Below are positions 1,380 through 54,114 of a stretch of DNA of 64,000 nt, in pieces (position 1 is the first letter of the stretch; every line of letters begins with the position of its first letter). Made by a program: the position numbers and the translations under genes. The notes beneath the pieces were generated by a model. That model was not told the origin of the DNA. It was given only the letters and a program-made list of their open reading frames with translations, and made no database searches. Source of the stretch: Carcharhinus amblyrhynchos (taxonomy: Eukaryota); assembly GCA_965287045.1 (NCBI GenBank), contig OZ336874.1:85312001-85376000 (forward strand), given 5' to 3'.

Positions 1380-1979
<600 letters not shown>

Positions 1980-2617
1980 TCAGAAACGCATCATTTTAAA
2001 AAAAGCACTATTTTAGATTTTTTTCAAGATCACAAACAATCACTTCAATTCTCCATAAAATTACAATAAAGGACATTATAAAAAATAGGCACATTAAAAA
2101 AAGGAAATAGAAAACACAGTTTTACCCCTCAGAGCGCTCCACATTGTGTCCGTTTAAAAAAAATCCAAAACACACAATATTGTGGGAAGAATTGCTGGAT
2201 TGCAAAAAAAAACTCCCCCAAACTGCAACACCCACCCACGGTTACAATTGGAAAATTCTCCAAACATCTAATGCATGAATGCAAACGATTAACTTACAAT
2301 TACAGGGGGGAAAAGACCGATGTATTAACCATTTGAATCCACAAAAAATATGCAGCCATGCTTGTAATTGTTAAACTCTCTCAACTTTGAAGCTGCGGAG
2401 TTCGATTTTTTTTAGGTTAAGCGACTTTTTTTTAAAAAAAGACGCGTTTTAAGAATTGGCAACTAACGTTTTTCTTATTTTTGACAGGTTTCAATTAACC
2501 GATTAGAAGGATTTTCACAACAGAAGCATTTGTTCAGATTCGAAGCAAAATCGCGCAATGAGAGATTTGGAGCTCATATCTTCTCACATTTACAGTGATG
2601 CTTAATAAAATATTCAC

Positions 2618-3065
2618 CTTCCCGCCTCATCCCAACTTTGAGGCATTTCTTCAGGCGGCAGTACTGACACTGATTGCGGTGGTGCTGGTCTATAGGACAA
2701 TTCCGGTTCGCACGACATGTGTACGTTAAGTTTCTCCGAACACTTCTCTTGAAGAAACTTTTGCAGCCCTCGCATGTGAACTGGCCGTAATGCTTGCCGC
2801 TGGATTTATCCCCACACACCACACACTCGATATGCTGCTGCTGCTGACAGGGCTGTTGCTTCTCGCCGACAGGCTGGACGCTCTGACTGCTGCCTCCGAG
2901 CGGAGTGGAGGGCGGCCCGGGCTGCCCTGGGGTCTGCGGGGTGTGGGGAGCACCCGATGCCGCCTGCTGCTGCTGCTGGCCCGGCTGCGTTTGTGCAGAC
3001 TGGCTGCCCTGAGCTCCGGCCACGTCCTCCTGAGGATCTCGCCATGTACTAACTACCATTGCCAT
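2618..3065 (-). CDS. NR2F2: COUP-TF (NR2F2-like) coding exon 1: N-terminal A/B region plus two-zinc-finger DNA-binding domain
   Basis: ATG at 3065 gives [12 protein letters not shown]...[72 protein letters not shown], the NR2F1/NR2F2 DBD. Phase-1 donor GAA G|GTGAAT at 2618/2617. Family call is near certain; the NR2F2 versus NR2F1 assignment is only about 0.65. Confidence 0.95.
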
Positions 3066-3818
3066 AATCTCGGGCCCAAAAAGTGCGGGAAAACAAGTTG
3101 ATCGCACGGATTTTTTTTTTGTCCTGTTGGTAGGGAACAGAGTTGGATGGTGGTAACAGAAAATGAAAAAAAAAGGAAAGAGAGAGAGAGAGGGAAAGAA
3201 AGGAATGAAACTGCGATCAAAGCAACGCACACAGACACACACACATAAGGAGCAGTGAATGAATGAGTGAGTGTTGATCAACAGTAACCGAAACAAATGA
3301 GGACCAAAAAAAATAGGATAAAAAGGAAGAACCCGATCAGGGTACGCAAGTGTCGGGAGGCCAGATCCAGGGCAACACGCAGTCAGCCATTCAGGAAAGC
3401 AATCTAGGAGGGAACGAGGGGTTAAAGATTATAGGAGTTGGGGAAAAAGAGACGACCTCAATTCGAAGGAACACACACACACAAGAGAAAAATAACCACG
3501 CGATCCGAAGTAAAGTATGGCGAGTGTTAAATCCCTTCTTCTCCGGAGAGGAACAGAAAATAGAAGATCTGAATTGTCAGAGAGAAAAAAAAACTCACCA
3601 GGACAAAAAAAAAGGACGGTCGACGTTAAAGCGCCCTATTTTCACCTCTCATGCGGAGTGGAGACAGAAAGAGAGGAAAGAAAAAACAACTAATAGAATA
3701 TGCAAGGGGGAGACAAAATGAATGCGTTTAAACGGGAAGACTAGCGGAGCAATTTTTCCGAAAGGGGGATCTGCGCGAATGTCTGTATATAGTGAACTTT
3801 GACACTACTATTGAAACT
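3066..3818 (-). other. Predicted 5' UTR (about 750 nt, pyrimidine-rich, three uORFs)
   Basis: Lies between the predicted Inr +1 (3818) and ATG 3065. Upstream ATGs at 3652, 3390 and 3246. The TSS is inferred from motif spacing only. Confidence 0.65.
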
Positions 3819-3975
3819 GACACGTTTCTATGGAGATCGCTGCCTTATATGGAGCTCATGTCAAGGAGCCAAGAGAGGGGCTGTTGGCAACTGATAATCA
3901 AAGGCGACTGGTCATAGCCCTGAATCGGGGCTGGGGAGGCTAAGGTTAGCCAGCCTCCTGCACACTATTGGTTAG
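3793..3975 (-). promoter_or_regulatory. Core promoter: CCAAT box, CArG/TATA, Inr and downstream DR1 element
   Basis: Minus strand: CCAAT 3971-3967; CCATATAAGG 3852-3843 with TATAA starting 31 nt before the A (3818) of Inr TCAGTTT; GTGTCA-A-AGTTCA DR1 at 3805-3793. A DR1 near the TSS is established for vertebrate NR2F promoters. Confidence 0.8.
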
Positions 3976-5260
3976 CCGTCTTATTTATTACCTACGACGC
4001 TCTGACAAGCAAAATTTACATTAGATCTCCTGCGCTGGTATTTACTTTGAGACCTTATTAGTATGGGTCGCCTGTGGTCACCACAAAAAAGCAACACGAG
4101 GACCCTGTGCTTGTAATAAAACAATGCAGCGAGCTGCCTCGAAATTTCAGATTATGCAAAAAAAAGTTAGTTGACAATGAAACTTTCTTTTCGGCATTTT
4201 TTGATGGATCATTGTTTAAAAATAAATAAATAACACGGGCAGCTCATCCCTTTTGTGTCAAAGAGAAAAAAAACCACAATGTTTTTGCTGTTGCAATATT
4301 AATTCGGTGAGCGACTGTTTTTTTACATTTCATTTTTATTCTGTTTCGAATTATCCTTTGATGCCTCGCTACAATGCCGGTGAGATTTCAATTGTGATTT
4401 GCAGAGGACGGAAAGTTGCCATTGTGTTGTAGACTGGGGAGCTGTGCTTGTAACTGTAGGATAAGTCCAGCAGAAAGTGCGGAGGCTGTTAACGTGCCTT
4501 GTATTTGACGCAAATTAAATCTCAGAACAGCTGTATCCGGCTGCCATCTAGCGTACAGTAGACAATTATCAAATATAATACACACCCAGCTGGATAACCC
4601 ACCAGATGGGCTTTTATTGAGGGATTTGTTTAATGCGAATAATTTATTGAATTTTAAAGTAAGTATTCTAAACTATTAATCCCAATGTTATTAACCCTAA
4701 AATTTCAGAATTAATCATTACATTAGTGGATCAAATGAAAACTGTGAATCCACCGCCCAGATCATTATTCGTTTCACTAAATTCTGGGTTACTGCTCTAC
4801 ACATATTGCAGCAATGTTTGAAACTTGAAGATGTAATGTTTATCGCCTATTTTCTACAAATCAGCCATGACAAAAAAACTTAACTGTTATAAAAGCAAAT
4901 AGATTCTCAGTGACAAACAGACCTAAGTAAGACAGTATACTTACTGTCGGTATGATTAATATATGCATTGCACCCATTCCTTCTAATATTTAGTTTGTTC
5001 AAAAACAAAGCGTAAACTCAGCGTGGCTAACCTTCATAATTGGTTAGATAACTTAAAAGAATACACAACAACGGCCTTTTGCACCATTCAACGTACACAT
5101 ACGCACACGAATTTGATTAACTAGTTTAAGTTTAATGGAATGAATTCGACTCTAGCATGTTGCCTTGACTAAGCACAGTTTACAATCGGTTGCCATCCTC
5201 AGCCACCCCTATTGTATATGCATTGATGAAGCGCCGTTATTATGCAACAGTGGATCTCGC

Positions 5261-11300: not shown

Positions 11301-14300
11301 TTTCTCTATGTAAAATGTCAAACACATGCACCCTTCTGTGAGTCTACGTGAGGATGGGGGAGGGGAAACGTCTGGCATGTGAGAAGCCAGAAGTGGGATA
11401 TGCATTAACAGTTATATGAATGTCATTGGAGCCTAGCTCATGTTTCCTTGTCTATGGCTTAGAGGGAAAAGTGAGAACTTTCGTAGAAACGATTCAATGA
11501 AAGATTTCACCTGTCACAATTTGAGCACGGTGCCATGGGGGCGGGAAGGGGGGGATAGCTGTTTGCAGCAAAGTCAAACTCCAATTGGTTACATGTTTAT
11601 CTTTTCCAACTCAAATTCTGTTCATATTAAATATATAAATGATGTTTTCATTGATTTGTTTGAGCATAATACATGCAGAAAGAAGGCACTTAGGGAAGCG
11701 TGCAGAAGGTCGAAAGACCTCTATGCTATATGTGGAAGATGGATATTGGAGTGAGGGATGGACGGTGATCGCGTTCTGCTGTGAGCTCCCTCTGGAAGCA
11801 GGGAGTGAAATTGTTCCATTACAGGGTTTTACAGCCCTCACATCTCACATCTCAGGTGTTTGCTCAGCTTCTCCTTAGAGCTTCTCCCACAAAACTGACA
11901 AGCGCAGAGAGAAAATGTGCCTTAATCGTTTCATTCGAACTGGGGGAAATTGGACCACGTCTTATTAAAATAAGTGGGAGGGGCGGGGGAATTTGAAAGC
12001 ACTCGTTACCAAAACCCATAAATTAGCAATGAAACGCAAGGTGTAGAGCACCAACAGCAAGTGACATTGGTATTTCAGCTCCCGTTGCTTTATGATACAT
12101 TTTCAGATAGCTTATCAATCAGATTAGATGATGACGTGAGCTGAAGTGGTTTGCTGCTTCATCAAAGCCTACATCGTATTTAAAAGTCCTTTCCATTAAA
12201 AAAAGTTTTTGTTTCCTACAGAAAGACATGACATTTTGAAATGAGTGCGGCAATTTAAGAAAACTGAGGTTAAAAGTTTATTTTGTTAAACTGCCACGAT
12301 GATTTAAAATGTCAACACTTTTGTTGCAATATTTTCGCGCTCTTCTTTCTGAGGGTATGTAATTGACAAGAGATTTCCCGCCATTCTCAATACAGCGTGT
12401 TATTTTACAGTTCGTCTTATTACAAGTTTATTCAATAGAAAATAATTTAAAAAAATAACAGCAACCCCACCAGACAGTATTTTTAACAGAAAGAAGTTAC
12501 GGTCTAGATCTATAATACAAGACGTAGCAACATTTACTCTCGCGAATTAAGATCCGGAATTACAAACCACCTTGAACACATCTTCTAGAGCAGTTTACCG
12601 CTGAAACATAATTGTATCGCTTGCTATATCTTCAATTATGGCAATCATAAAGTGTTGTCATCTTGGTGCATTCAGCGTTCAGGGGCACTCGGCATCTTCT
12701 GGAGTTAACGCTTTCGTATTTAATGATGTGTATTAAATATTAGGCCAACTCCATGGCACGCACACTACTCGGGAGCACTGACTTAATGTAAAAATGCCCA
12801 CATTTGCACTGCACGACTAAAATTTTCTATTCTATCTATAAGCTATAACTGTGCACGCACTGTAATAAATGCCACTGACTATTCAGTTGGGCCCAATTAT
12901 TAATAATAACTTCTTAGTTGTCTTGTGTCTTTATTTCTAACTTGGCAAAGCAGCTTTTATGTAATATAATCTTCATGAAACAGCTTATTGGTTAGAAATA
13001 TCGTTGCATTAATTTTGATGAGGCACTTCTATTTTAACTCAGTGAGGATTTTAATTCAGTACTTCACAGTGTCTATATCACCAAGTGGTTGTTATATTGC
13101 TGCCGGCTTTGAACCCAACTGACCAGGAGCAATTGAAAGTAAAACGCACAGAACTGTTCACTTCATTCACATTATAGCAATGGTCCTAGTCAATAGGACT
13201 AGGACCTCACTGAAACACAGTTATCTGTTTACCTATCTGATTGATATGCAATCTATGGCAAGATGCTAAAAAGTAGATTGTAGGGAGATAAAGCACGGAT
13301 ACTCAATCGGCACCTGTAACAGAATCTGATTCTGCATGGTTCATGCCACGTTTTCCTGAGTTAGGTTTGCATTCAAGAAGATATCTTGTGTAGTCTGTGA
13401 AGTGTGGCTGAAATATCTACATTAATGGAATAAGACATAAGGCTTATGAGAGTCGGAGCTCAACACTGGCAGGCGGGCGCGGGCTCCACATACTAACATA
13501 AAATGATCAATATTTTAAAGGGTAGTAGCGGATGATGGTTGGGTCACATCGGATGTAAACGGAAACTTCTACCCGCCGTCACTACCTTTGCGTGTACTTT
13601 TTGCTCACTTGTATTTTAGGAAGACAAATGGTTGCTCAAGTCGACTTTTTTCAACGTTCTATTTGTAATTATTTACTTTGTGGGGCAGCGAGCCCCATAT
13701 TCATTAAGCCACGCCAGGGTCAAGTTCTTATTTATTTGTTCATACAATTAAGTATAATTTCCAGTAATTTTGCACCTCGCAATAAATGTCCATTTAGCCT
13801 TGGGTGCATACCTTGGGATCAGTATTTAACTCATTGAAATTATTAACATCGGACAATCAACTCAAAACGTAGCGCAACCAAATGAAATGATTCCCTAGGT
13901 TTTTTTTGCAATATTTTGTGAGTGAGTGTCTATGGTATCCCCCAGGGCTCTTTCTCCCTGCCTGCTCCCTGATTTCGTGTATAAAAGCAGCTCTGAATGA
14001 TGGATTACTGTGTCATTGCAGCCTGCGAAGGATTAATTTGTTTCATTGATTTCTCTTTAGGCAGAATGCCAGGATTCGCTGCTTCCCACCTTTACAGGAT
14101 ACTTCCAGCAGTAATAGACGGTAATAGCCTAAGACAAATCAGCCCATTCTTGTAAAAATAGAACCACAAAGCGCAAATCTCCCAGTTGACTGCGAGGATG
14201 CACCTTTTCTGCCGCATTCCAAGGACATTAATAAATAAGCTTTCTTGTACAGGTATTACTAAGATTCTTTGATTTCTGTATAAACAATGAGGAGAGCAAC

Positions 14301-17492: not shown

Positions 17493-17505
17493 TGACCTTT
17501 GACCA
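17493..17505 (-). promoter_or_regulatory. Near-consensus DR1 nuclear receptor site
   Basis: TGACCT-T-TGACCA on plus equals TGGTCA-A-AGGTCA on minus. Function untested. Confidence 0.45.
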
Positions 17506-23146: not shown

Positions 23147-24086
23147 CATAAGAACATAAGAACATAAGAAATAGGAGCAGGAGTAGGCCATCTAGCCCTT
23201 CGAGCCTGCCCCGCCATTCAATAAGATCATGGCTGATCTGTTGTGGCTCAGTTCCACTTTCCCGCCCTCTCCCCATAACCCTTAATCCCCTCTCTTATCA
23301 AAAACCCATCAACCCGCTTCTTAAAAATATTTAGCGAGGCAGCCTCCACCACTTCAACGGGCAGAGAATTCCAGAGATTCACCACCCTTTGAGTGAAGAA
23401 GTTCCTCCTCAACTCTGTTCTAAACCGCCTCCCCTTTATCTTGAGGCTGTGCCCCCTAGTCCTACTGTCTTTTTTGAGCGGGAAGAGTCTCTCCACCTCT
23501 ATCCTATCCATCCCATTCATCATCTTATACGTCTCAATGAGATCTCCCCTCATTCTTCTAAACTCTAGCGAGTACAAGCCTAGTTTATTCAGCCTCTCCT
23601 CATAGCTCAACCCCCTCAACTCCGGTATCAGCCTAGTAAACCTCCTCTGCACTCCCTCCAGGGCCAAAATATCCTTGCGTAGGTGCGGCGCCCAAAACTG
23701 CACACAGTACTCCAGCTGCGGCCTCACCAATGCCCTATACAGCTGCAGCAAGACCTCCCTACTTTTATATTCAATCCCCCTCGTTATGAAGGCCAGCATC
23801 CCATTTGCCTTCCTGACCACCTGCTGCACCTGCAAGCTGGGTTTTTGCGACTCATGCACAAGGACCCCGAGGTCCCTCTGCACCGTCGCCTGCTGCAGTT
23901 TTTCGCCCCGTAAGTAATAGTCCTTCCTACCATTCTTCCTACCAAAGTGGACCACCTCACACTTGCCAACATTAAATTCCATTTGCCATTTCCTGGCCCA
24001 TTCGCCCAGCCTATCTAGATCCTTCTGCAGACTCTCCACACCCTCCGCACAATTTGCCTTTCCCCCAATCTTGGTGTCATCAGCAT
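23147..24086 (-). mobile_element. Young 5'-truncated CR1 LINE; ORF2 C-terminus uninterrupted
   Basis: ORF 23248-24114 from ADDTKIGG through LEYCVQFWAP, RTRGHSLK, NLWNSLP to YGERAGKWN stop; 3' UTR and (CTTATGTT)n tail. Confidence 0.95.
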
Positions 24087-24199
24087 TTCCCAATAACAAT
24101 TCTAAAAGCTCCAAAAATGCAGCATAACTGACATATTACTTTATGTCAACTGTTGCCTTGGTGTCTGAGTTGAAACACTTTAAGAGAAGTTTGACTTAT

Positions 24200-31099: not shown

Positions 31100-31760
31100 A
31101 ACACTTTCACAGAATTACATACAGTGTTCAATGCAGAAATATGCCTTCCAGCCTCATGGATCCACTATTTACACTCTATATAAGCCTTCTTCCACCCTTC
31201 TTCATCTAATCTGATCAACGCAACCTTTCTCTGTCATGTGGTTGTTTAGCTCAATATTGTGATGTATTGGGTACCATTCCTGCCTTTGAGTCAGAGGCTT
31301 TGTCTTTGCATCCCAACTTGATAGCCAAAGAAGGTGCATTCATAATGTGACCAAATATATTGATTATCAACTTTCAACTCCTTTTTATGCAGACCATGTG
31401 ATGAAAAGAAGTTGGAGCCTCCTCCATCAGCATCCATAGCTGCAGACTATAAAATCATGTTGCCACAGCAACTTGGACTCCCTGAGTGATCTGTAGCACA
31501 CCACCATCAACAGTGTCAATGTTATTTGCCTCAGCTGTTCCATGCGGTAGCAAGTTCCTGCTTCTAATCATTCTTTAGGTAAAGAAGGGTCTTCTGAATT
31601 TGCTACTTGGCTTATTAGTGACTGTTTTATGTTTATGCCCTCGAGTTTTGGACCCTCCACAAGTGAAACATATTGCTCATTTCCAGCATTCATAATCTTA
31701 AAAATTTCTATCCAGTCACCCTCAGTCTTCTGCCTTATAAAAATTAGCATTGAATACTAA
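31100..31760 (-). mobile_element. Old CR1 3' fragment, probably with an inserted SINE-like segment (about 31250-31500)
   Basis: Remnant RQKTEGDWIEIFKIMN...SLVEGPKLEG at 31568-31750; tail-like sequence near 31110. Confidence 0.5.
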
Positions 31761-36966: not shown

Positions 36967-38992
36967 TATCTAATTGCCAGACTTTCTTCATCAATCTATG
37001 AACTTTTTCTTTCGGCATCTGACAAAGTCCTGGAAGCAAAAGCAACAGGTTGCCATTTTCCATCTTAAGAGAAAGTACAGCCCCTATGCCATCAGGTGAT
37101 GCATCACACGTCACTATGATCTGCTTGCCTGGGTCAAAGTGATTGTGGGACTTGTTTTCCTCGGTGAAAGGCTTTTCTCTAAGAATCCTACTATTGTCAA
37201 CATTCATTTTTTTTTAGAAGTTGGTGCAAGGGTGCCAAAATGGTGGACAAGTTTGGCAAAAAGTGGCCACAATCCCTTAGAAAAACTTCAACACTGCTAT
37301 GTTCTTTGGTGCAGGTACCTCTTTTATTACCTTTACCTTTTCTTCTAGCAGGTGTAACCATTTTGCATCGACTCTGAATCCTAAGTATGTGACCTAATTG
37401 GCCTGAAAAGTACATTTTTCTTTTTCCAGCTTCTTTGAATCTTTTGAGGGCTGCCTTCAAATTGGCCCTACGCACTTTGGGTGATGCCCCTGTTACTAAG
37501 ACATTGTCCAGATACACAACACCTCTTGGGATCTCTTTGAGAAGGCTTTCCATGGTGCATGGAAAGATAGAGCATGAAACATCAAAGGGTAACCTTGTAC
37601 ATTGGAATAAATACTCATGTGTATAAATGGTGACAAATTTCCTTGAGTCTTCCTCTGGCTCAAACCGTTGATACTCATGACTTAAGTCAAATTTCATCTA
37701 CTTGAGACCTCCTATCAGTTTTGTGTAAAGGTCTTCTATCCTAGGGTTAGGATATCTATCTATTTGGGCAACCTTATTCATGCTCAGCTTGTAATCATCA
37801 GAAATCCTCACTGTGCAGTCTGGTTTTAACACTGGGCCTATTGGTGCAGCCCACTCTGAGAGCTGTACCGGTTTAATTACTTCTAGGGTTTTCCAGTTGT
37901 TTCAACTCCACCTCAACTTCCTCGTGCAGAACATAAGGCACAGGCTGGGCTCTAAAAATGTTGGCATTGATCCAGGGTTCACATTAATTTTGGCCTTAAC
38001 TTCTCATATGCACCCCAGATGTCTCTGAAAGACTTCTTGATACTTGTCCAGGAATTACTGGAAAACTCTGTCTGTGATACAGAATTTTTCCAGCCAATTC
38101 AATTTGATTTGCCTCAGTCAGCCTCGTTTCATAAGGCTCGGCCTCTGCCCTTTTATTGTCATCAGAGGTAGCTGGGCAGATTGGTGCTGGTAAGACACCA
38201 GTGTTGACATCGGGCCCAAACTCCTCAGTGCCTCCACTGTCTTGGTTGCCAACTTGGCTGTTGTACTGCTCGGCTTCAAGGTTGCAAACCTCCCTGTAAA
38301 TACTTGTATGCTTACAGTCCTATTACCATGGCTGAAGTGCCTGTGTCAACCTCCACAATTAATGGATACCCGTTAACAATAAAGACTATTTTAAGGAACG
38401 TTTTTTAAATTTAACTTTACAATGTTAAGCTTATAAACTTCAAACTGCTTCTGAATCTTCCTCAAGCCTATTCATTGACATCCTCGTTTTTTTTCTCTGG
38501 GAACTAGGCACCATCTATTTGACTCTGCATCTGGCTTTAATGTGACACTTCCTATTGCATGTGAAACAAATGAACTCTTTACACTTGCATTTGTCTTGGG
38601 GATGGTCTCCTCCATAACAAAAACACTTGACAAACTCATGTGGCTCGTGACTTATCTTCCTTTTTTCAGGCTCTGCTGTGCTCTCAGTATGGGTATTTCG
38701 AGCAGCCATCATTTTAATTTCCCTTGCTTTGAACAGCTTTCAGATCAAATGTGTTCTGTTCTGTACTTTCAGCCATTGAGTCAATTCAGCACCTTGTCCA
38801 GGGATATTTTAGTTTCTGCCAACAACTTCTTCTGAATGTTCCAGTTAGTAATATCATATATGAGACTATCATGTAACACATCAAACTCAGTGTTCAGCCA
38901 TTTGGCAAAGCCTGGCAACCAAACAGAAACTGTCTTCCCTGCGTCCCTCACCACAGAATGGAATTTATATCACTGCATAATAATGGAGGTCA

Positions 38993-44712: not shown

Positions 44713-46068
44713 AAGAACATAAGAAATAGGAGCAGGAGTAGGCCAACTAGCCCTTCGAGCCTGCCCCGCCATTCAATAAGATCATGGCTGATCTGTCGTG
44801 GCTCAGTTCCACATTCCCGCCCTCTCCCCATAACCCTTAATCCCCTCTCTTATCAAAAACCCATCAACCCGCATCTTAAAAATATTTAGCAAGGTGGCCT
44901 CCACCACTTCAACGGGCAGAGAATTCCAGAGATTCACCACCCTTTGAGTGAAGAAGTTCCTCCTCAACTCTGTTCTAAACCGCCCCCCCCCCCCTTTATC
45001 TTGAGGCTGTGCCCCCTAGTCCTACTATCCTTTCTGAGCGGGAAGAGTCTCTCCACCTCTATCCTATCCATCCCATTCATCATCTTATACGTCTCAATGA
45101 GATCTCCCCTCATTCTTCTAAACTCTAACGAGTACAAGCCTAATTTATTCAGCCTCTCCTCATAGCTCAACCCCCTCAACTCCGGCATCAGCCTAGTAAA
45201 CCTCCTCTGCACTCCCTCCAAGGCCAAAATATCCTTGCGTAAGTACGGCGCCCAAAACTGCACACAGTACTCCAGCTGCGGCCTCACCAATGCCCTATAC
45301 AGCTGCAGCAAGACCTCCCTACTTTTATATTCAATCACCCTCGCGATGAAGGCCAGCATCCCATTCGCCTTCCTGACCACCTGCTGCACCTGCAAGCTGG
45401 GTTTTTGCGACTCATGCACAAGGACCCCGAGGTCCCTCTGCACCGTCGCCTGCTGCAGTTTTTCTCCACGTAAGTAATAATCCTTCCTACCATTATTCCT
45501 ACCAAAGTGGACCACCTCGCACTTGCCAACATTAAATTCCATTTGCCATTTCCTGGCCCATTCGCCCAGCCTATCTAGATCCTTCTGTAGACTCTCCCCA
45601 CCCTCTGCACAATTTGCCTTTCCACCAATTTTGGTGTCATCAGCAAATTTCGACACCCTACACTCGGTTCCCTCCTCCAGATCATCTATATAAATGGTAA
45701 ATAGCTGAGGCCCCAGCACCGACCCCTGGGGCACTCCACTAGTCACCATCCGCCAATCCGAATAGCACCCATTGACCCCCACTCTCTGCCTCCTATTTGA
45801 CAACCAGTCCTCTATCCACGCTTACACCCTACCCCCAACTCCATGCCCCCTGACCTTCTGCAATAACCTCTTGTGAGGTACCTTGTCAAACGCCTTCTGA
45901 AAATCAAGAAAGACCACATCCACCGGCTCTCCTCTATCCACCGCCCTAGACACATCCTCATAGAACTCCAGTAAATTTGTCAGACACGACTTCCCTTTAA
46001 CGAAACCGTGCTGCGTCTGCTCTATCAAGCAGTTCCCCTCAAGATGCCTCGCTATTTCCTCCTTGATG
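44711..46068 (-). mobile_element. Young CR1 LINE, 5' truncated within RT; sister of 23147-24086
   Basis: RT motifs QHGFVKGKSCLTNL, DFQKAFDKVPH, GVPQGSVLGP, FADD; one in-frame TAA (45824-45822) and a poly-C frameshift near 44983-44994. Confidence 0.95.
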
Positions 46069-46149
46069 ACGGATTGGCCAGGATATTGAATTTGATGATC
46101 AGCCATAATCAAAATGATTGTTTCTATGAACTATCCCAGCAGATCTTGT

Positions 46150-46880: not shown

Positions 46881-49800
46881 AACTATAAAATACTATGAAG
46901 TAGGTTGCAGAGCAGCTATTTAGCAATACTTAATAAAAACATCAAGGGGAATTTGTAACAACTTCCTTAACTTTTATGAAGATTTTACATATCATATGAG
47001 GGACTACTCATTGAGAGACTACTAATAGAAATAAAATGTTTGGAATTGGGAATGTGGAACGGATCTGTTGCTCAGCCTTTTCTTTGTAACCAGTTAATAC
47101 GAGGTGAGTGAAGGAGAGAGAGGAAGACCAAGGGTGATTTGCCTCTTGTTTATTTGTCTTTCCTCTCTGCAGGAAAACACTATATCCTCTGCTCGGCACG
47201 CCTGAGATTCAGAACCCAATGTTTGGAACACTGGTCAGTGTGATTTTTGCAGGATAAACAAATAACTTAATGTTTGTGACGCTCATGAGACCTGAAACCA
47301 AGTAAAATCAATTAAAAGTCTTGAGTGAAAATCTTTCCCTATTTAGACAGGGGATGTTTGCTATCAAGAGTTGTTAGAAGTCCCTAATGGCCAGAAGAAA
47401 CTGATATCCATTACAGGTTTCTTTTTGGGTCATAACATTATCTGTCTGTCATTTTCATGAAGCCTCTTACATACCTTATGCCAATCTGTGGTATGTGTGC
47501 AAAAAAATACATTTTGGTGGAAATATGCATTGATCTTCAGCCACTGTGAGTATCAAGGCTGCCCATTCCTAACCACAGCTCCAAACATGTGTTGCTAGTC
47601 ATAGCTATGCTATCTAGTAGAGATAGTTAGCAGGTGCCAGGCACTTTTCCACCACAAACAATTTTAGCAATATCAAAGTACAAGGCATCCTGCCATACTG
47701 GACACTGATCATGGACTTTGGACAGATAATGTACTGAAGCCGTTAGCCAGGCAATGATGCAGAGCTTATACAGGAGAGAGAGAACAGTTAAATATCGGGT
47801 AAAAAAGACATTTAAAAAAGAGTGGCTGACCCAACCCCACAAAATAAAAGCCAGCTGATCTACAATTCCACACATGTGTACCAATAAACCAAAGCGGTTT
47901 GATTTTCATTCCACTTATTTACTAGCCACTACTGAATTAAAGATGTGGGCTTTGTCCTTTAGTTATTGCAAACTGCACTGCATGACTTCAACATTGGCAT
48001 GAACTTTTCATATTTTCTCTTACACCTTTGGACCTCTAGGTTTAACTCATTTTCCCTACCGAAGTCATTTCAGTATAGTTTATGAAATAATCAATAAATC
48101 CTTTGCAGGTATGCCCCACCTCTAATAATGCATGATGCATCTGTACTGGAAAGGGAAGGCAGCGATGGTCGTGGTAGTTGTGGGGTGGTGGAGGGGGGAG
48201 GGAGGACTTGTTTCATCCCCTTTTTCCTAATAAAAAAGAAAATATAGAACAGATGTGCAATAAATTCTTTTGCACTCTCCAGAAAGGTTATCATATGAAA
48301 CCAATAAAGACATATATTCAAGAACGTTAAAGACATATTTTTATTTGCATTGACATTTAAAGGAAAAGGTTGATATGAAATTATGACTTACACATATGAA
48401 TTCCATTTCAGTACATATTATTTTACGTTTGCTTTTCATAGGTGTATTTTCATTTGAAGAATGCATTTTTATTTATAATCACATAATTAAGAAAAAAACC
48501 AGAATACCTCTATTATCTTAATTGCATTTAAGAATTAGTACACCAACAGGTCCTCAAAAATTTACATCTCACAGGTTTTATGAAAGAAAATATAATTTGT
48601 GATCAACCTCACTGTTCTAGGGCAGAGCAGGAGAGATGTAGGAGAGTCCACTACTCCGCCATTGCAATGTTTCGCAGACCAGTAGGATCGTTTTCTCTCT
48701 GTAATTCCTCATACACAGAGATCCTGATCTCATGTTTGCTGTAAAAGGAAGATACTGGACATTTGATGAGTTGTTTCCCCAAATGGAATGTAAAAAGAAA
48801 ATCAGAGGACAAATCACCCTAAGCTATTCTTGCTTTCTCCCTGGCAGCCAGCTCAGAATTACTACTATCAGACACCAAGACATTAATCACTCTCCGAGGT
48901 GGGGGTGGAGGGGGAAGGTGGGGGGGTGGGCAGTTAGGAGGGCCTAAGCAAATGAAGAGAGTAAAGTAACACAGGCATAAAAGCAATAAAAAGTGAGAAT
49001 GAGAAAGATTGCTATCTGTCAAACTAAGCATGATTGTTACATGGTAAAGGTGAGATTTCAATACTCAAGTTGTATTTTTATCTTGGCTTTTCATTATTTT
49101 TTAGCTACGATCATTCTGGCTGTGGGCTAACATAATATAATGCCATATAATGCCACATTATAATAGGGTTCTTGGACTTCTGGAGCATCAAGTAAGAGAT
49201 CTGAGACCATATTGCAGTTATAAGTGAAGGAAAATCAAGATGGCATCATTTTGTGTATGGTTGTTAAATAATACATACTTCTGATGTTTGTGAAAGTTAA
49301 ATTAATTAAATTCATTCTTCACTAATTTCTGCAGCAAGAAAATTGACCCAACATTTTCAGGAACATAGGGTATTGAGACTACAGAAGGCATTATGTAAAT
49401 GTAAGTTCTTTCTTTCTAGTGGGTCTTGCTGAATAGGTACAGAATAATAACCAGTTGACATCAAAAAGCATTTATGTGTTGTAAATTAGTCTTATACACA
49501 AATCAATAAATATGTTCGCATAATATGTGCACTATTGTTCACATGACATTTGATAACTTTTTTTAACAACACAGGAATAGAGTTAACAGTTTAGTAAGGG
49601 CATACATAAAGAACTAACATGCAACAAAAGTGTAATCATGTATATTTAATCAACTGCCCAGCAGTAAGATGCATCTTGTATAAAATCTTGGTCATCTGCC
49701 AAATAAGTGATGAAGGTACACAATGAGCACATCTCAGTAATCATGTCAAGGTGCCTCTGCCACTCCCTGCTACCCCCACACCCCAGTGGGGTAAATGTGT

Positions 49801-51688
49801 TTCTGAACCACACCCCATCTGAGCAGTTCCAAGCTGGTGAAACTGAATCAATGCAGCTCAGCAAATACTAGTGATAAATAGCTTTGTGATTTAGATAGTC
49901 AAGCTTCACTTAATGCTGAAATTTGAACTGTTTGAGGTGCTGGACTATTGTACACATGACTTACACTTTTAATTGAAGGGTTAGTTATAATAGTTGGAGC
50001 ATTAAAATACTTGGAGTAAGATTTTATTTGTCCTGCTTGGACAGCGGACCACTTGTCTGTTGGGGTGCCCACCTGAAAGTAAGATGAATTCTGCAATGGG
50101 TAGGCAATCTGCTCTGCCAGCTTACTATCCATATGCTGAAGATATCCCTTGGTATTGGTTCAAGGACTTCCCCAGCCTTTTAGTAAGTCCTATCTGCTTA
50201 ACTCAAACCTCTTTCCAACATTTCTAATCCTCCTTGTGTGTAGGTTTCCTGGTTGAGAGTAACAGTATTTTGCTTAATTTCCCTACTCAAATAAAGAACA
50301 AAGTCAACAGGACATGACAATTACAGATGGCATTCACCACATGGAACAAGCACACCAGAAAATCCCACCATTTTATCAGAGTCCATTATTCGCTCATTTT
50401 CTGTCAAGAGTTTGTGATTACAGATTACTTGATTGACTCACTGGACATCTGCAAAGTGAATTCCAGAACAGGTTTGTTTCACCTCACAATTATCAGACCA
50501 TGTTGCAATTCCTCACAACAATTGAATGCCTATAGCAGAACAAATTATAAATTAAGGTCTTGGTTTGTTTGCAATATACATTTTTAAGCATACAATTCAT
50601 TTCAATTACAAATAATTATTTATTTGCCAAAGAAGAAAACTTAGGTACAGAATGTCTCCATATTTAGTTACTTCTCTTCTTTACTCATTTTTGTTGTAGA
50701 TTGTCTCAGTGTGAACTTCCTGCAATAGTCATCGTTAAACCATTCATGATGGGCAATGCTAGATTAACACACTGAGTTTTTGTTAACAAGACACACACGT
50801 TTAATCATCTCAGTCATGGCACACCTGGCTTTTGCATAAGATTTAATTGTCTAGCTCAAAATGATCATTTTTTTTAACCTACCTGGATTCAATGTGCCGT
50901 CTACTGATAAGCACCACAAAATGCAGGAATTTGCTACATGTAAAACGCAACGTGTAGTAATCCTCATCCAAGCTTGTGGTGTATTTTACTTTGGTTATGC
51001 ATTAAGAAGTTAATAAGAAAAGAAGAATTTCACTTTATCCCCGTGACTCTGTAGAATTTCAGGAATCTTCATTGTTTTCAACACTGCCGTAGTTCCTTGT
51101 CTATGGAGGTCCACAGATCAATTACTTCAACCTCACTGTACTGCAGGCACCACAAAGCACCAGGTAAAAGCTTTCTGCAAATAAAAGTCGACTCCAAACT
51201 GCATTGCTGAAGCTCCATTAAAATTCTATCCTTGAAGCCAGCCCCCCTTTACGTTGGAGGTTCCAAGATGCAACTGGGGATGTTATTTTGGATTTATAAA
51301 CATGTGTAATGTTGTTTACCAATCATGCCTGTGTTACCCCAATTATTGGGATATCTGTGTATAGCTCTAATTAACTAAGAGTAATCTAGTTCAAAAGAGA
51401 CAATGCTAAATGCTCAAAGAAAGTATATATTTTTTGTTTCCATTAACATTGCAAAATGAAAACTTATTTGAGAAAGCCTGCCACTGTCAATAATTAAAAG
51501 TAATTGCTTCATAAATTTGTGGTTGCCAGCATTTTCTAAATCATTAGAGGGTGACTGAAATCAAAAACTTTAAATTTACACAAGACAAAAATTTCCATTT
51601 TTTAAATTTAATTGAGATCTTGGCTCCGAAGCTTATAAAAGATGAAAGAGGCAACATATTTTAATAAGGTTAAAATCCAGCATTTACA

Positions 51689-51921
51689 AAGTCAAAGGTT
51701 ATACATGTGCTGGTCCAGAGTTTAACTGCAGGATGAGTTAAGGTTCAGATGCTTCTGTGACAACACAGGGTCAGGCGACTTGGATACATCTTTCCAAGCT
51801 GTTCCTGAAGAATAAATGGGTTGTTTGCACACAGGGCGGCTAGCTATCTTTTCTGTTGATTTCAAGTCCAAAATGAATTGAGTGCCAGTGTCACAGGTCA
51901 AAGGTGAGAGGTGAGGGGTCG
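51689..51921 (+). promoter_or_regulatory. Candidate distal enhancer with clustered DR1 nuclear receptor sites
   Basis: GTGTCA-c-AGGTCA-a-AGGTGA-g-AGGTGA-g-GGGTCG (51888-51921), AAGTCA-a-AGGTTA (51689-51701), GAGTTA-a-GGTTCA (51735-51747), GGGTCA (51768-51773), in non-repeat sequence. Confidence 0.55.
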
Positions 51922-54114
51922 TCCTGGGCCTTCCTTTATGCACGCTTATGGATTGCACTCCGGATTTGTTTCTTGTATATAGGAAATCTCCACCAGTTCT
52001 TGAGTGAAGTGAACTACGAGAAAAGATGGGCAGGGATCCATCTGAAGCACTTTTGGGACAATGTATTTCTTTACCATATCTCTAGAATACAAAACAAAAT
52101 ACAAATGTGTCAGTGTATCAGTGTACTATTTTGTTTTAAATAACAACATGTTACCTAAACAAAAACACTTGTTTGCATTGCTGTTAACAGAAAACCGGTC
52201 ATGAATTTCCAGTATGTGTTGCTGGCAGGCAAGACTTCCTGCTGGCAACACACACTTGTAAAACTACCACTACAGAGTAATGGACACCATGCAGTGAGCA
52301 GCAATGATATAATCAAGACCATTGCCTTACAGCGACTGAATAAGTTTTTAATCACATGGGATTTTGGGATTTTTTTAATTAATGGGTTGAGGATTATATC
52401 CTGTGAATCTGTTCATTTATAATTAGGGCCTTTGGTTTATGGCGACTGAAGTAGTTATTTTTCATTTTATTACAAGGTTTTCAGGATTTTCTTTCGTTGG
52501 TCTTCATATCCTATGGTTTCAGCCATAGTTTTGATCTCAGCTATGATCTAATTGAGCCAATTTAGCTGATATCATAAATCACTACACCAGGGTCAGACAT
52601 TAAATTTTTGGCTTTAATTCACTCCTCACATAGAGCTAGATTTTTCACCCATTGACTGCAAATGTGGTTTTTTTGTGTTGCAAATTAAAGCTGGAATATT
52701 TCACATCCTTTAAGAATTTCAGTGTCTCACTGATGTACAGGCTTTAGGTCTTTTTGTGATGAGCAGCATGAGTTGATAGAATCGTATATTTTAAAATTTA
52801 GCAAAGATGTGAAGTAAAGTTGTCAGTAATCGTTTTGAGATTTGATATTAATGCAGCAATTTCCATTTCTATGGAACAGGTGTATTTTGTGCTGCATTAG
52901 TCAATTCACATTTGAAAGTTAGACACTCCTGTCTTTCACAAGGGGTATCATAATTATTTATGATGTTCTACCTCGAGCAATTTAAGGACTGTCCACTTTT
53001 AGTTCTTTAAACATCAGGACAAGAAAGGAGGTTACTTTGCATTGAGATGTCTTGTACCTGCACCTATGTACCAGAGATACCTATAAACCTTTGGGTGTCA
53101 CACATTGGAAGCCATAGCTCTAGGGCAGAACAATATAAAATTTGCTTCAAAGCAAATAAACTGAACCAAAGTTTCAGAAAACAATTGAAGTAATATTTGC
53201 TCTGACAGTTAATAAGAATTGTAATTACTAAAATATAAACTTGCCTGTGTCTGCAAAGACCCACTCATATCCGGACAAGTTTTTGACACATTCATCAGAG
53301 ACTTATATGGACCTTTGGTTCATTTAAAAAATACTTGCTTCTTGCTATTCAAAATCCTATATTATATTTGCTATAAATCAAGAGGCACTCCTTACATCAA
53401 AAAATATTTTTAGAAAATATATAAAATGACTAGAATTGCTAGATTTGATGTAGCACTGAGGAAATGCACTGCCTTTAAACTCATATTAAATAAAAAGATT
53501 TTTATTTCTATAACGTATGGTTTCATGGATGGGCAGATGTGACCCTTGTGCTTGTAAGTCCCATTAGATGAGTTCCTGATCTCCCTTTTGGTGTCAGGGA
53601 TAAGCAATGAGCAGCGAAGACATGGTTCCCCACATGGAGGAAGGAAAATCACCTCAGCTATGTTTCCATTCCTCAAGGCATTGGGAGAGGAACGAGAGCT
53701 ACTTGTCTGTCACCCATTATTGCTCATAGCAGGGAAGCATGGGGAAAATGAAATGGAACAAAGGAGGCAGAAATGCATTTTATAAGATGGACAAGTCTCA
53801 ATGTTTGTTAACTTAAAGATTTTATAGAGCTAAATTATTGTTGGATCACTCAAGAAATTCCAGGCTCTTCATATTTAAATCCTACAGAGGTGACCCTACC
53901 TGCAATAATCAAGGGACTCCCCATGAGAGGGTCTCTGATAAAGAGACATGTTAAAAGGGGCACTGGCAAAGTGGATTGACCTCCTGACCATGGAAGATGC
54001 ACATGTGCTAATTGAAGCATGGGAAACAAAGAAGATGAAATTATTCAAAGTCAGGAGCATGAACTAAGTTCACAGAAATTGGCTGCAGGTTTGATAAACT
54101 TTCCAATTTACTTA

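Follow-up and report, generated by a model that had tools for sequence, protein, structure and literature searches.

Five AGGTCA-like repeats with 1-bp spacing make up the rat CRBP-II RXR response element. RXR has been described to bind repeated half-sites as trimers to pentamers (review PMC5303745), regions bound by RAR/RXR often contain composite elements with more than two half-sites (PMC4446430), and COUP-TF prefers DR1 sites with half-sites of the form RGKTCR (PMC10345098). A conserved promoter DR1 has also been described for the COUP-TF genes NR2F1 and NR2F2; in zebrafish, the DR1 of the nr2f1a promoter is bound by RAR/RXR in EMSA and ChIP and is by itself insufficient for a response to retinoic acid (PMC6377147). 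Retinoic acid induces nr2f1a (PMC8608873), a response for which distal elements are considered necessary (PMC6377147, PMC11563408). For zebrafish nr2f1a, the enhancers 5'reg1, which lies upstream, and 3'reg1-4 have been reported (PMC11563408). PMC4890907 provides general background only.

Here, we analysed an array of five nuclear-receptor half-sites in a stretch of DNA of 64,000 nucleotides (the window). The array resembles the CRBP-II element in its five half-sites in DR1 register, but only one of them is perfect (two in the related organisms G and H), the array lies at a distance from the gene, and not every relative has kept half-site 4. With the promoter DR1 it has in common the gene, the first half-site GTGTCA and the 1-bp spacer, whereas it comprises five half-sites, sits on the other strand at a distance of 48 kb and is absent at NR2F2 (PMC6377147 for the promoter DR1). 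It is similar to RAR/RXR composite elements including DR8 in grouping more than two half-sites around a central one, as half-sites 1 and 3, 2 and 4, and 3 and 5 each form a DR8; the characterised DR8, however, is a DR2 plus a DR0, whereas that of the array would be a DR1 plus a DR1 (PMC4446430, accessible part). The zebrafish nr2f1a enhancers, which show tissue-specific activity, are likewise conserved non-coding elements close to the gene; parts of the two 5'reg1 primers had no match in the window, which proves little about identity with the element described here (PMC11563408).

Half-site array and neighbouring gene

The features of the locus are listed in Table 1. The earlier note had claimed five half-sites in a 7-bp register forming four overlapping DR1s, and all of them were found in their places on the plus strand. 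They are RGKTCA-type half-sites in direct repeat with 1-bp spacers, and the array is thus built of DR1s. Its spacers are c, a, g and g in this order, so that it combines four different half-sites with three different spacers. The DR1s starting at 51888 and 51895 carry one mismatch in total each, the remaining two carry two each; four of the five half-sites bear a mismatch in the window and three of five in organism H. The GGGTCG of half-site 5 fits the COUP-TF half-site consensus RGKTCR. Neither strand of the window holds any other stretch in which at least three half-sites follow each other at period 7.

Table 1 Features of the locus, with positions counted from the first base of the window. 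Mismatches refer to RGKTCA.
Feature	Position	Strand	Remarks
COUP-TF gene, coding exons 1 and 2, most likely NR2F1	1383-3065	-	
Promoter DR1 GTGTCAAAGTTCA	3793-3805	-	identical to zebrafish nr2f1a DR1 probe (PMC6377147, accessible part)
Exons of spliced RNA	about 47173-47233, 49105-49260, 50409-50471, 51055-51088, 53888-53997	+	from one contig of organism G, in a run guessed to be RNA
Moderately constrained single-copy non-coding element	51660-51968		limits are those of the tested stretch, not mapped edges
Weak DR1-like pair AAGTCA-a-AGGTTA	51689-51701	+	2 mismatches in total
Weak DR1-like pair GAGTTA-a-GGTTCA	51735-51747	+	2 mismatches in total
Isolated perfect half-site GGGTCA	51768-51773	+	unchanged in E and H
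Half-site array, four overlapping DR1s	51888-51921	+	five half-sites, 7-bp register
Half-sites 1-3 (GTGTCA c AGGTCA a AGGTGA)	51888-51907	+	two overlapping DR1s, also DR8; likely functional core; invariant in E, G and H
Half-site 1 GTGTCA	51888	+	1 mismatch
Half-site 2 AGGTCA	51895	+	0 mismatches, middle of core
Half-site 3 AGGTGA	51902	+	1 mismatch
Half-site 4 AGGTGA	51909-51914	+	1 mismatch; exact copy of heptamer 3
Half-site 5 GGGTCG	51916-51921	+	1 mismatch; GGGTCA in G and H
Neighbouring, more strongly conserved element	52139-52395		differences H 4/257, G 3/190; no such array

Two further DR1-like pairs and a GGGTCA had been noted within 200 bp in the same orientation; they are present, the pairs with two mismatches each. 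A single DR1 with at most two mismatches occurs in 510 of 5880 strand windows of 200 bp (8.7%), and the combined criterion for the upstream motifs, which was chosen after these had been seen, is met by 51 of 5880 (0.9%). By themselves, the upstream pairs are weak evidence.

The gene downstream most likely is NR2F1, and its copy on contig C28 most likely NR2F2. This assignment follows from three observations: among named proteins, exon 1 is closest to COUP-TF1 with 73-79% identity, compared to 68% for the one named COUP-TF2; the window gene encodes HCYL where the C28 copy and the solved COUP-TF2 have HSYL; and the N-terminus of the window gene outscores that of C28 against four of six proteins named NR2F1 (with one near-tie and one lower score). 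On the HCYL/HSYL difference and the N-terminus scores, the reverse assignment of the window gene as NR2F2 was rejected. Pfam PF09757, used to check synteny, gave no hit here or in the controls, so this check is uninformative. Two further COUP-TF copies in the genome, which is probably that of a cartilaginous fish, are presumably NR2F5 and NR2F6. The distance of 48 kb between array and COUP-TF gene given in the earlier note agrees with our measurement from the promoter DR1, and the hexamer GTGTCA is indeed the same in half-site 1 and in the promoter DR1. A near-perfect single DR1, TGGTCAAAGGTCA, was additionally observed at 17493-17505 on the minus strand, about 14 kb upstream of the gene.

Copy number, abundance and conservation

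The array, both upstream pairs and the isolated GGGTCA all lie inside the 309-bp element. A genomic search with 51550-52050 that skips very common words gave one match, the region from 46.9 to 54.1 kb had no cross-match against 400 kb of other DNA, Tandem Repeats Finder did not call the array, and Rfam had no match at the element, its only hit being a sub-threshold one at 48098-48247 (E 0.51). The region is therefore repeat-poor as previously described, and the element is not the multi-copy repeat that had been allowed for; the array itself belongs neither to a microsatellite nor to a transposon-derived repeat. Elsewhere in the window, broken retrotransposon reverse-transcriptase fragments were recognised by eye from the list of open reading frames at 23248-24135, 44964-46130 and 37197-37697.

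We also searched for a paralogous copy of the element across the NR2F genes. Using blastn, 51401-52500 had no match in 230 kb at the NR2F2 locus or in 100 kb at the NR2F6 locus, and in 70 kb at the NR2F5 locus the only match was a 30-bp AT-rich one far from the array, so that a copy at these three loci was rejected. Other elements are common to the window and the NR2F2 locus on C28 with order and orientation kept, namely 13990-14076 (86% identity), 31562-31630 (74%) and 3646-4035 (74%). None of the non-coding elements shared with NR2F2 is near the array.

Under an order-3 Markov null, a run of five half-sites at period 7 occurred in one of 2000 simulated windows and a run at any period from 6 to 11 in two of 2000. 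Scaled to 2.9 Gb, the Markov rate corresponds to about 20 loose five-runs per genome, so that the array is rare for a single window but would not be unique in the genome. The four NR2F loci, 600 kb of further DNA from the same genome, held no other five-run and one four-run. The real genome holds more such arrays than any Markov model predicts, as three RGKTSA units at period 7 had 35,092 genomic matches compared to 479 for the reversed pattern. A five-unit pattern tailored to the array had 146 genomic matches and its reversed control 179; among the first 100 matches listed, those on large contigs fell in seven chromosomal loci. The window array was the only mixed-sequence locus among these seven listed, with a pattern that had been written to fit it, while the six others among the matches listed were all uniform microsatellites or slippage products, or satellite. 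A general excess of DR1s around NR2F genes was not clear, with none in five other stretches: the DR1 count was 8 in the window compared to 2-6 for other spacings, and 28 upstream of NR2F2 compared to 11-27.

The stretch was found in seven other organisms, of which four (E, F, G and H) were compared and three (B, C and D) left out. The sequencing runs had been chosen for words shared with 51300-52300, which favours conserved stretches; six runs are guessed to be RNA, and none was listed as RNA on record. Differences were counted in pieces with at least 80% identity among the matches listed, Fisher tests compared the element with nearby non-exonic pieces, and the comparisons with E, G and H all share the window's own branch. 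Organism E differed at 4 of 309 positions of the element compared to 170 of 4129 nearby (p = 0.005), and overall at 174 of 4438 positions over 49611-54048. Organism G had 6 differences in the 188 bases of 51781-51968 and 58 in 589 nearby (p = 0.0016), with a step from 6/188 to 21/184 in the adjoining bases of one contig, and organism H had 16/309 compared to 106/1100 in four other pieces (p = 0.007). With the neighbouring 52139-52395 element included in the background, the p-values weaken to 0.013 (G) and 0.057 (H). Substitutions in the element are thus two- to three-fold fewer than in nearby DNA in all three comparisons, and none of the three showed an indel in it. Organism F had no difference over 51581-51830, where its coverage ends before the array. 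The element is single-copy, non-coding and less diverged than its neighbours.

Within the array, half-sites 1-3 showed no difference in E, G and H and are part of an invariant block (51882-51910); if 12-20% of sites are assumed to vary in neutral DNA, three unchanged half-sites would be expected with a probability of 0.08-0.01. Half-site 4 is unchanged in E and H and is broken in G by 51911 G>A, a change in one contig at depth 3.5 that may be an error. In the two more distant organisms, G and H, 51921 G>A turns half-site 5 into a perfect GGGTCA. Among the upstream motifs, 51691 G>T in H (at the K position) leaves the first half of the 51689-51701 pair at one mismatch, and the only difference of the 51735-51747 pair in E and H is the spacer base 51741. 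Three of the four changes that touch listed motifs (51691, 51741 and 51921) are hence harmless or improving, and one (51911) is breaking. The array holds 2 of 10 variable sites in 34 of 175 bp, with 1.9 expected, and therefore appears constrained as part of the element and not beyond it; the bases 51781-51880, without any listed difference in G, hold no array. The earlier note had tied its reading to conservation of the half-sites beyond close relatives. This stands for the element, which is kept in relatives about 4% and 10% diverged, and for the invariant half-sites 1-3, but neither for half-site 4 nor for an array constrained more than the surrounding element. Metagenomes were scanned for orthologues from vertebrates; one scan had no match, and the 101 matches of another are due to chance, with flanks of 26% identity.

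The neighbouring element (Table 1) is about 1.6% diverged in G and H. It contains an inverted repeat with 24-bp arms at 52206-52261, of which region a 58-bp, 83% copy lies at C16:24449383-24449440, and other contigs of E and F have short matches to the element. These matches suggest an old repeat-derived element.

An 843-base contig of organism G, from a sequencing run guessed to be RNA, joins five pieces in order on the plus strand between about 47172 and 53997, and AG or GT dinucleotides occur in the window no more than 2 bases from where the pieces end. The array lies inside the intron 51089-53887 of this divergent RNA and is skipped by the spliced contig. The loose end before 47172, which is upstream and common to G and H, had no counterpart in the window even when up to 3 mismatches were allowed. 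The spliced RNA runs away from NR2F1 and is likely the counterpart of the mammalian lnc-NR2F1 (NR2F1-AS1), which, in the accessible part of the source, is also spliced and transcribed away from NR2F1 through the upstream region (PMC6380841), whereas the counterpart here is known from one contig of a run guessed to be RNA.

Possible functions of the array

NR2F1 dosage matters in human neurodevelopment. In our preferred reading, which we consider evenly poised between right and wrong, the array would be a composite site of overlapping DR1s in a distal NR2F1 enhancer or silencer, with half-sites 1-3 as its core, tuned by COUP-TF and retinoid receptors. This reading builds on what was observed directly, namely the register, the single copy, the position, the reduced substitutions in the 309 bp and the invariant half-sites 1-3. 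The core GTGTCA-c-AGGTCA-a-AGGTGA would offer two mutually exclusive DR1s that share the perfect middle half-site, plus a DR8, for which COUP-TF homodimers may compete with RAR/RXR or RXR dimers. Retinoic-acid signalling would then raise and NR2F protein lower NR2F1 transcription, a scheme already put forward for the promoter DR1. Half-sites 4 and 5 probably arose by heptamer duplication and may offer room for one more dimer, bound more weakly and not strictly needed. As a constrained multi-DR1 site, the array would be a concrete candidate for the distal elements thought to be needed besides the promoter DR1.

Several observations count against this reading: the array is not constrained above the element, organism G has a broken half-site 4, conservation is stronger in the neighbouring element, which lacks such an array, and the element is absent at NR2F2, NR2F5 and NR2F6, even though the NR2F2 locus has other elements in common with the window. 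Against a retinoid role in particular speak, in the accessible parts of the sources, the report of only one promoter-proximal RARE for Nr2f1 in mouse trunk (PMC7259794), a ChIP-seq analysis that placed neither RARg nor RXRa at Nr2f1 (PMC3905905), and the lack of an nr2f1a row where RAR sites within conserved elements are tabulated for zebrafish (PMC8608873 supplement).

Quite possibly, even if we consider it less than probable, the roughly 300-bp element is a real enhancer in which the array is incidental, an ordinary DR1 or half-site having been extended by slippage under constraint from other overlapping factors; TALE or T-box proteins, for example, could bind the words TGTCA or AGGTGA in the array. 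The equal constraint of array and element would be expected in this case, as would the array-free 51781-51880 with no listed difference in G, the identity of heptamers 3 and 4 and the wealth of slippage arrays elsewhere in the genome, seen in the excess of three-unit matches and in the six other listed chromosomal five-unit loci. Less easily reconciled with an incidental origin are the mixture of half-site and spacer types, unlike the uniform repeats elsewhere, the perfect half-site 5 in G and H, the extra same-strand half-sites within 200 bp with changes that spare the match, and the neighbouring gene, which is known for DR1 regulation. It is quite improbable that the DNA is neutral, with array and low divergence both accidents of sampling. 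About 20 loose five-runs are expected per genome, few species were compared in runs whose selection favours conserved stretches, and an unrelated four-run lies 44 kb from NR2F6; however, the two- to three-fold reduction in all three comparisons, the sharp step within one contig of G and the lack of indels are difficult to explain in this way.

A role at the RNA level, in which 5' splice-site-like motifs in the array, AAG/GTGAGA (after 51903) and GAG/GTGAGG (after 51910), close an alternative exon of the divergent RNA, is very improbable. Both motifs match the donor consensus, the first is invariant in E, G and H, and a spliced plus-strand RNA, in a run guessed to be RNA, crosses the region. 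Yet the spliced contig leaves out the array, passing directly from 51088 to about 53885, and G lacks the second GT. The G and H contigs continue through the array with no joint, and the one good acceptor upstream (AG at 51865-51866) is CA in H, which makes a splicing role unlikely.

Returning to the composite site, the earlier note had proposed a distal regulatory element able to load several receptor dimers or an RXR oligomer. The single-copy conserved element is in line with the first part of this proposal. A five-site RXR-oligomer platform is unsupported over a simpler element of two or three half-sites, because the constraint on the array equals that of the element, half-site 4 is broken in G and slippage easily makes heptamer arrays. 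We regard it as improbable that all five half-sites act together with the motifs 150-200 bp upstream as an ancient platform in jawed vertebrates, where RXR oligomers would compete cooperatively with NR2F1 dimers, giving a not yet described switch-like distal feedback within the intron of the gene's own divergent RNA. DNA bound by RAR/RXR often carries composite arrays of half-sites, and the array would be an ordinary composite site of a well-known type and is a fair candidate for a distal NR2F1 element. The literature searched on NR2F1/NR2F2 DR1s, RAREs and enhancers, with most subscription papers outside its scope, held no description of the element, and the exact array words led to one paper, an unrelated one.

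Other repeats in DR1 register

Further repeats in this register were observed elsewhere in the genome. Four half-sites at period 7 lie at C26:9741112-9741138 (+), about 44 kb upstream of the NR2F6-like gene, outside detected repeats and with flanks that show no similarity to the window element. Five near-perfect half-sites at C18:50902312-50902345 (-) and seven at C3:42776599-42776646 (+) are in DR1 register and have the look of slippage repeats. A G-rich satellite with 7-bp units such as GGGTCAG and GGTTCAG occupies C17:129854-266900 and contigs C60-C188 and yields long runs of perfect DR1 half-sites. Variant telomeric repeats bind COUP-TF or TR2/TR4-type receptors in ALT cells, and by analogy this satellite could be a candidate binder of such receptors.
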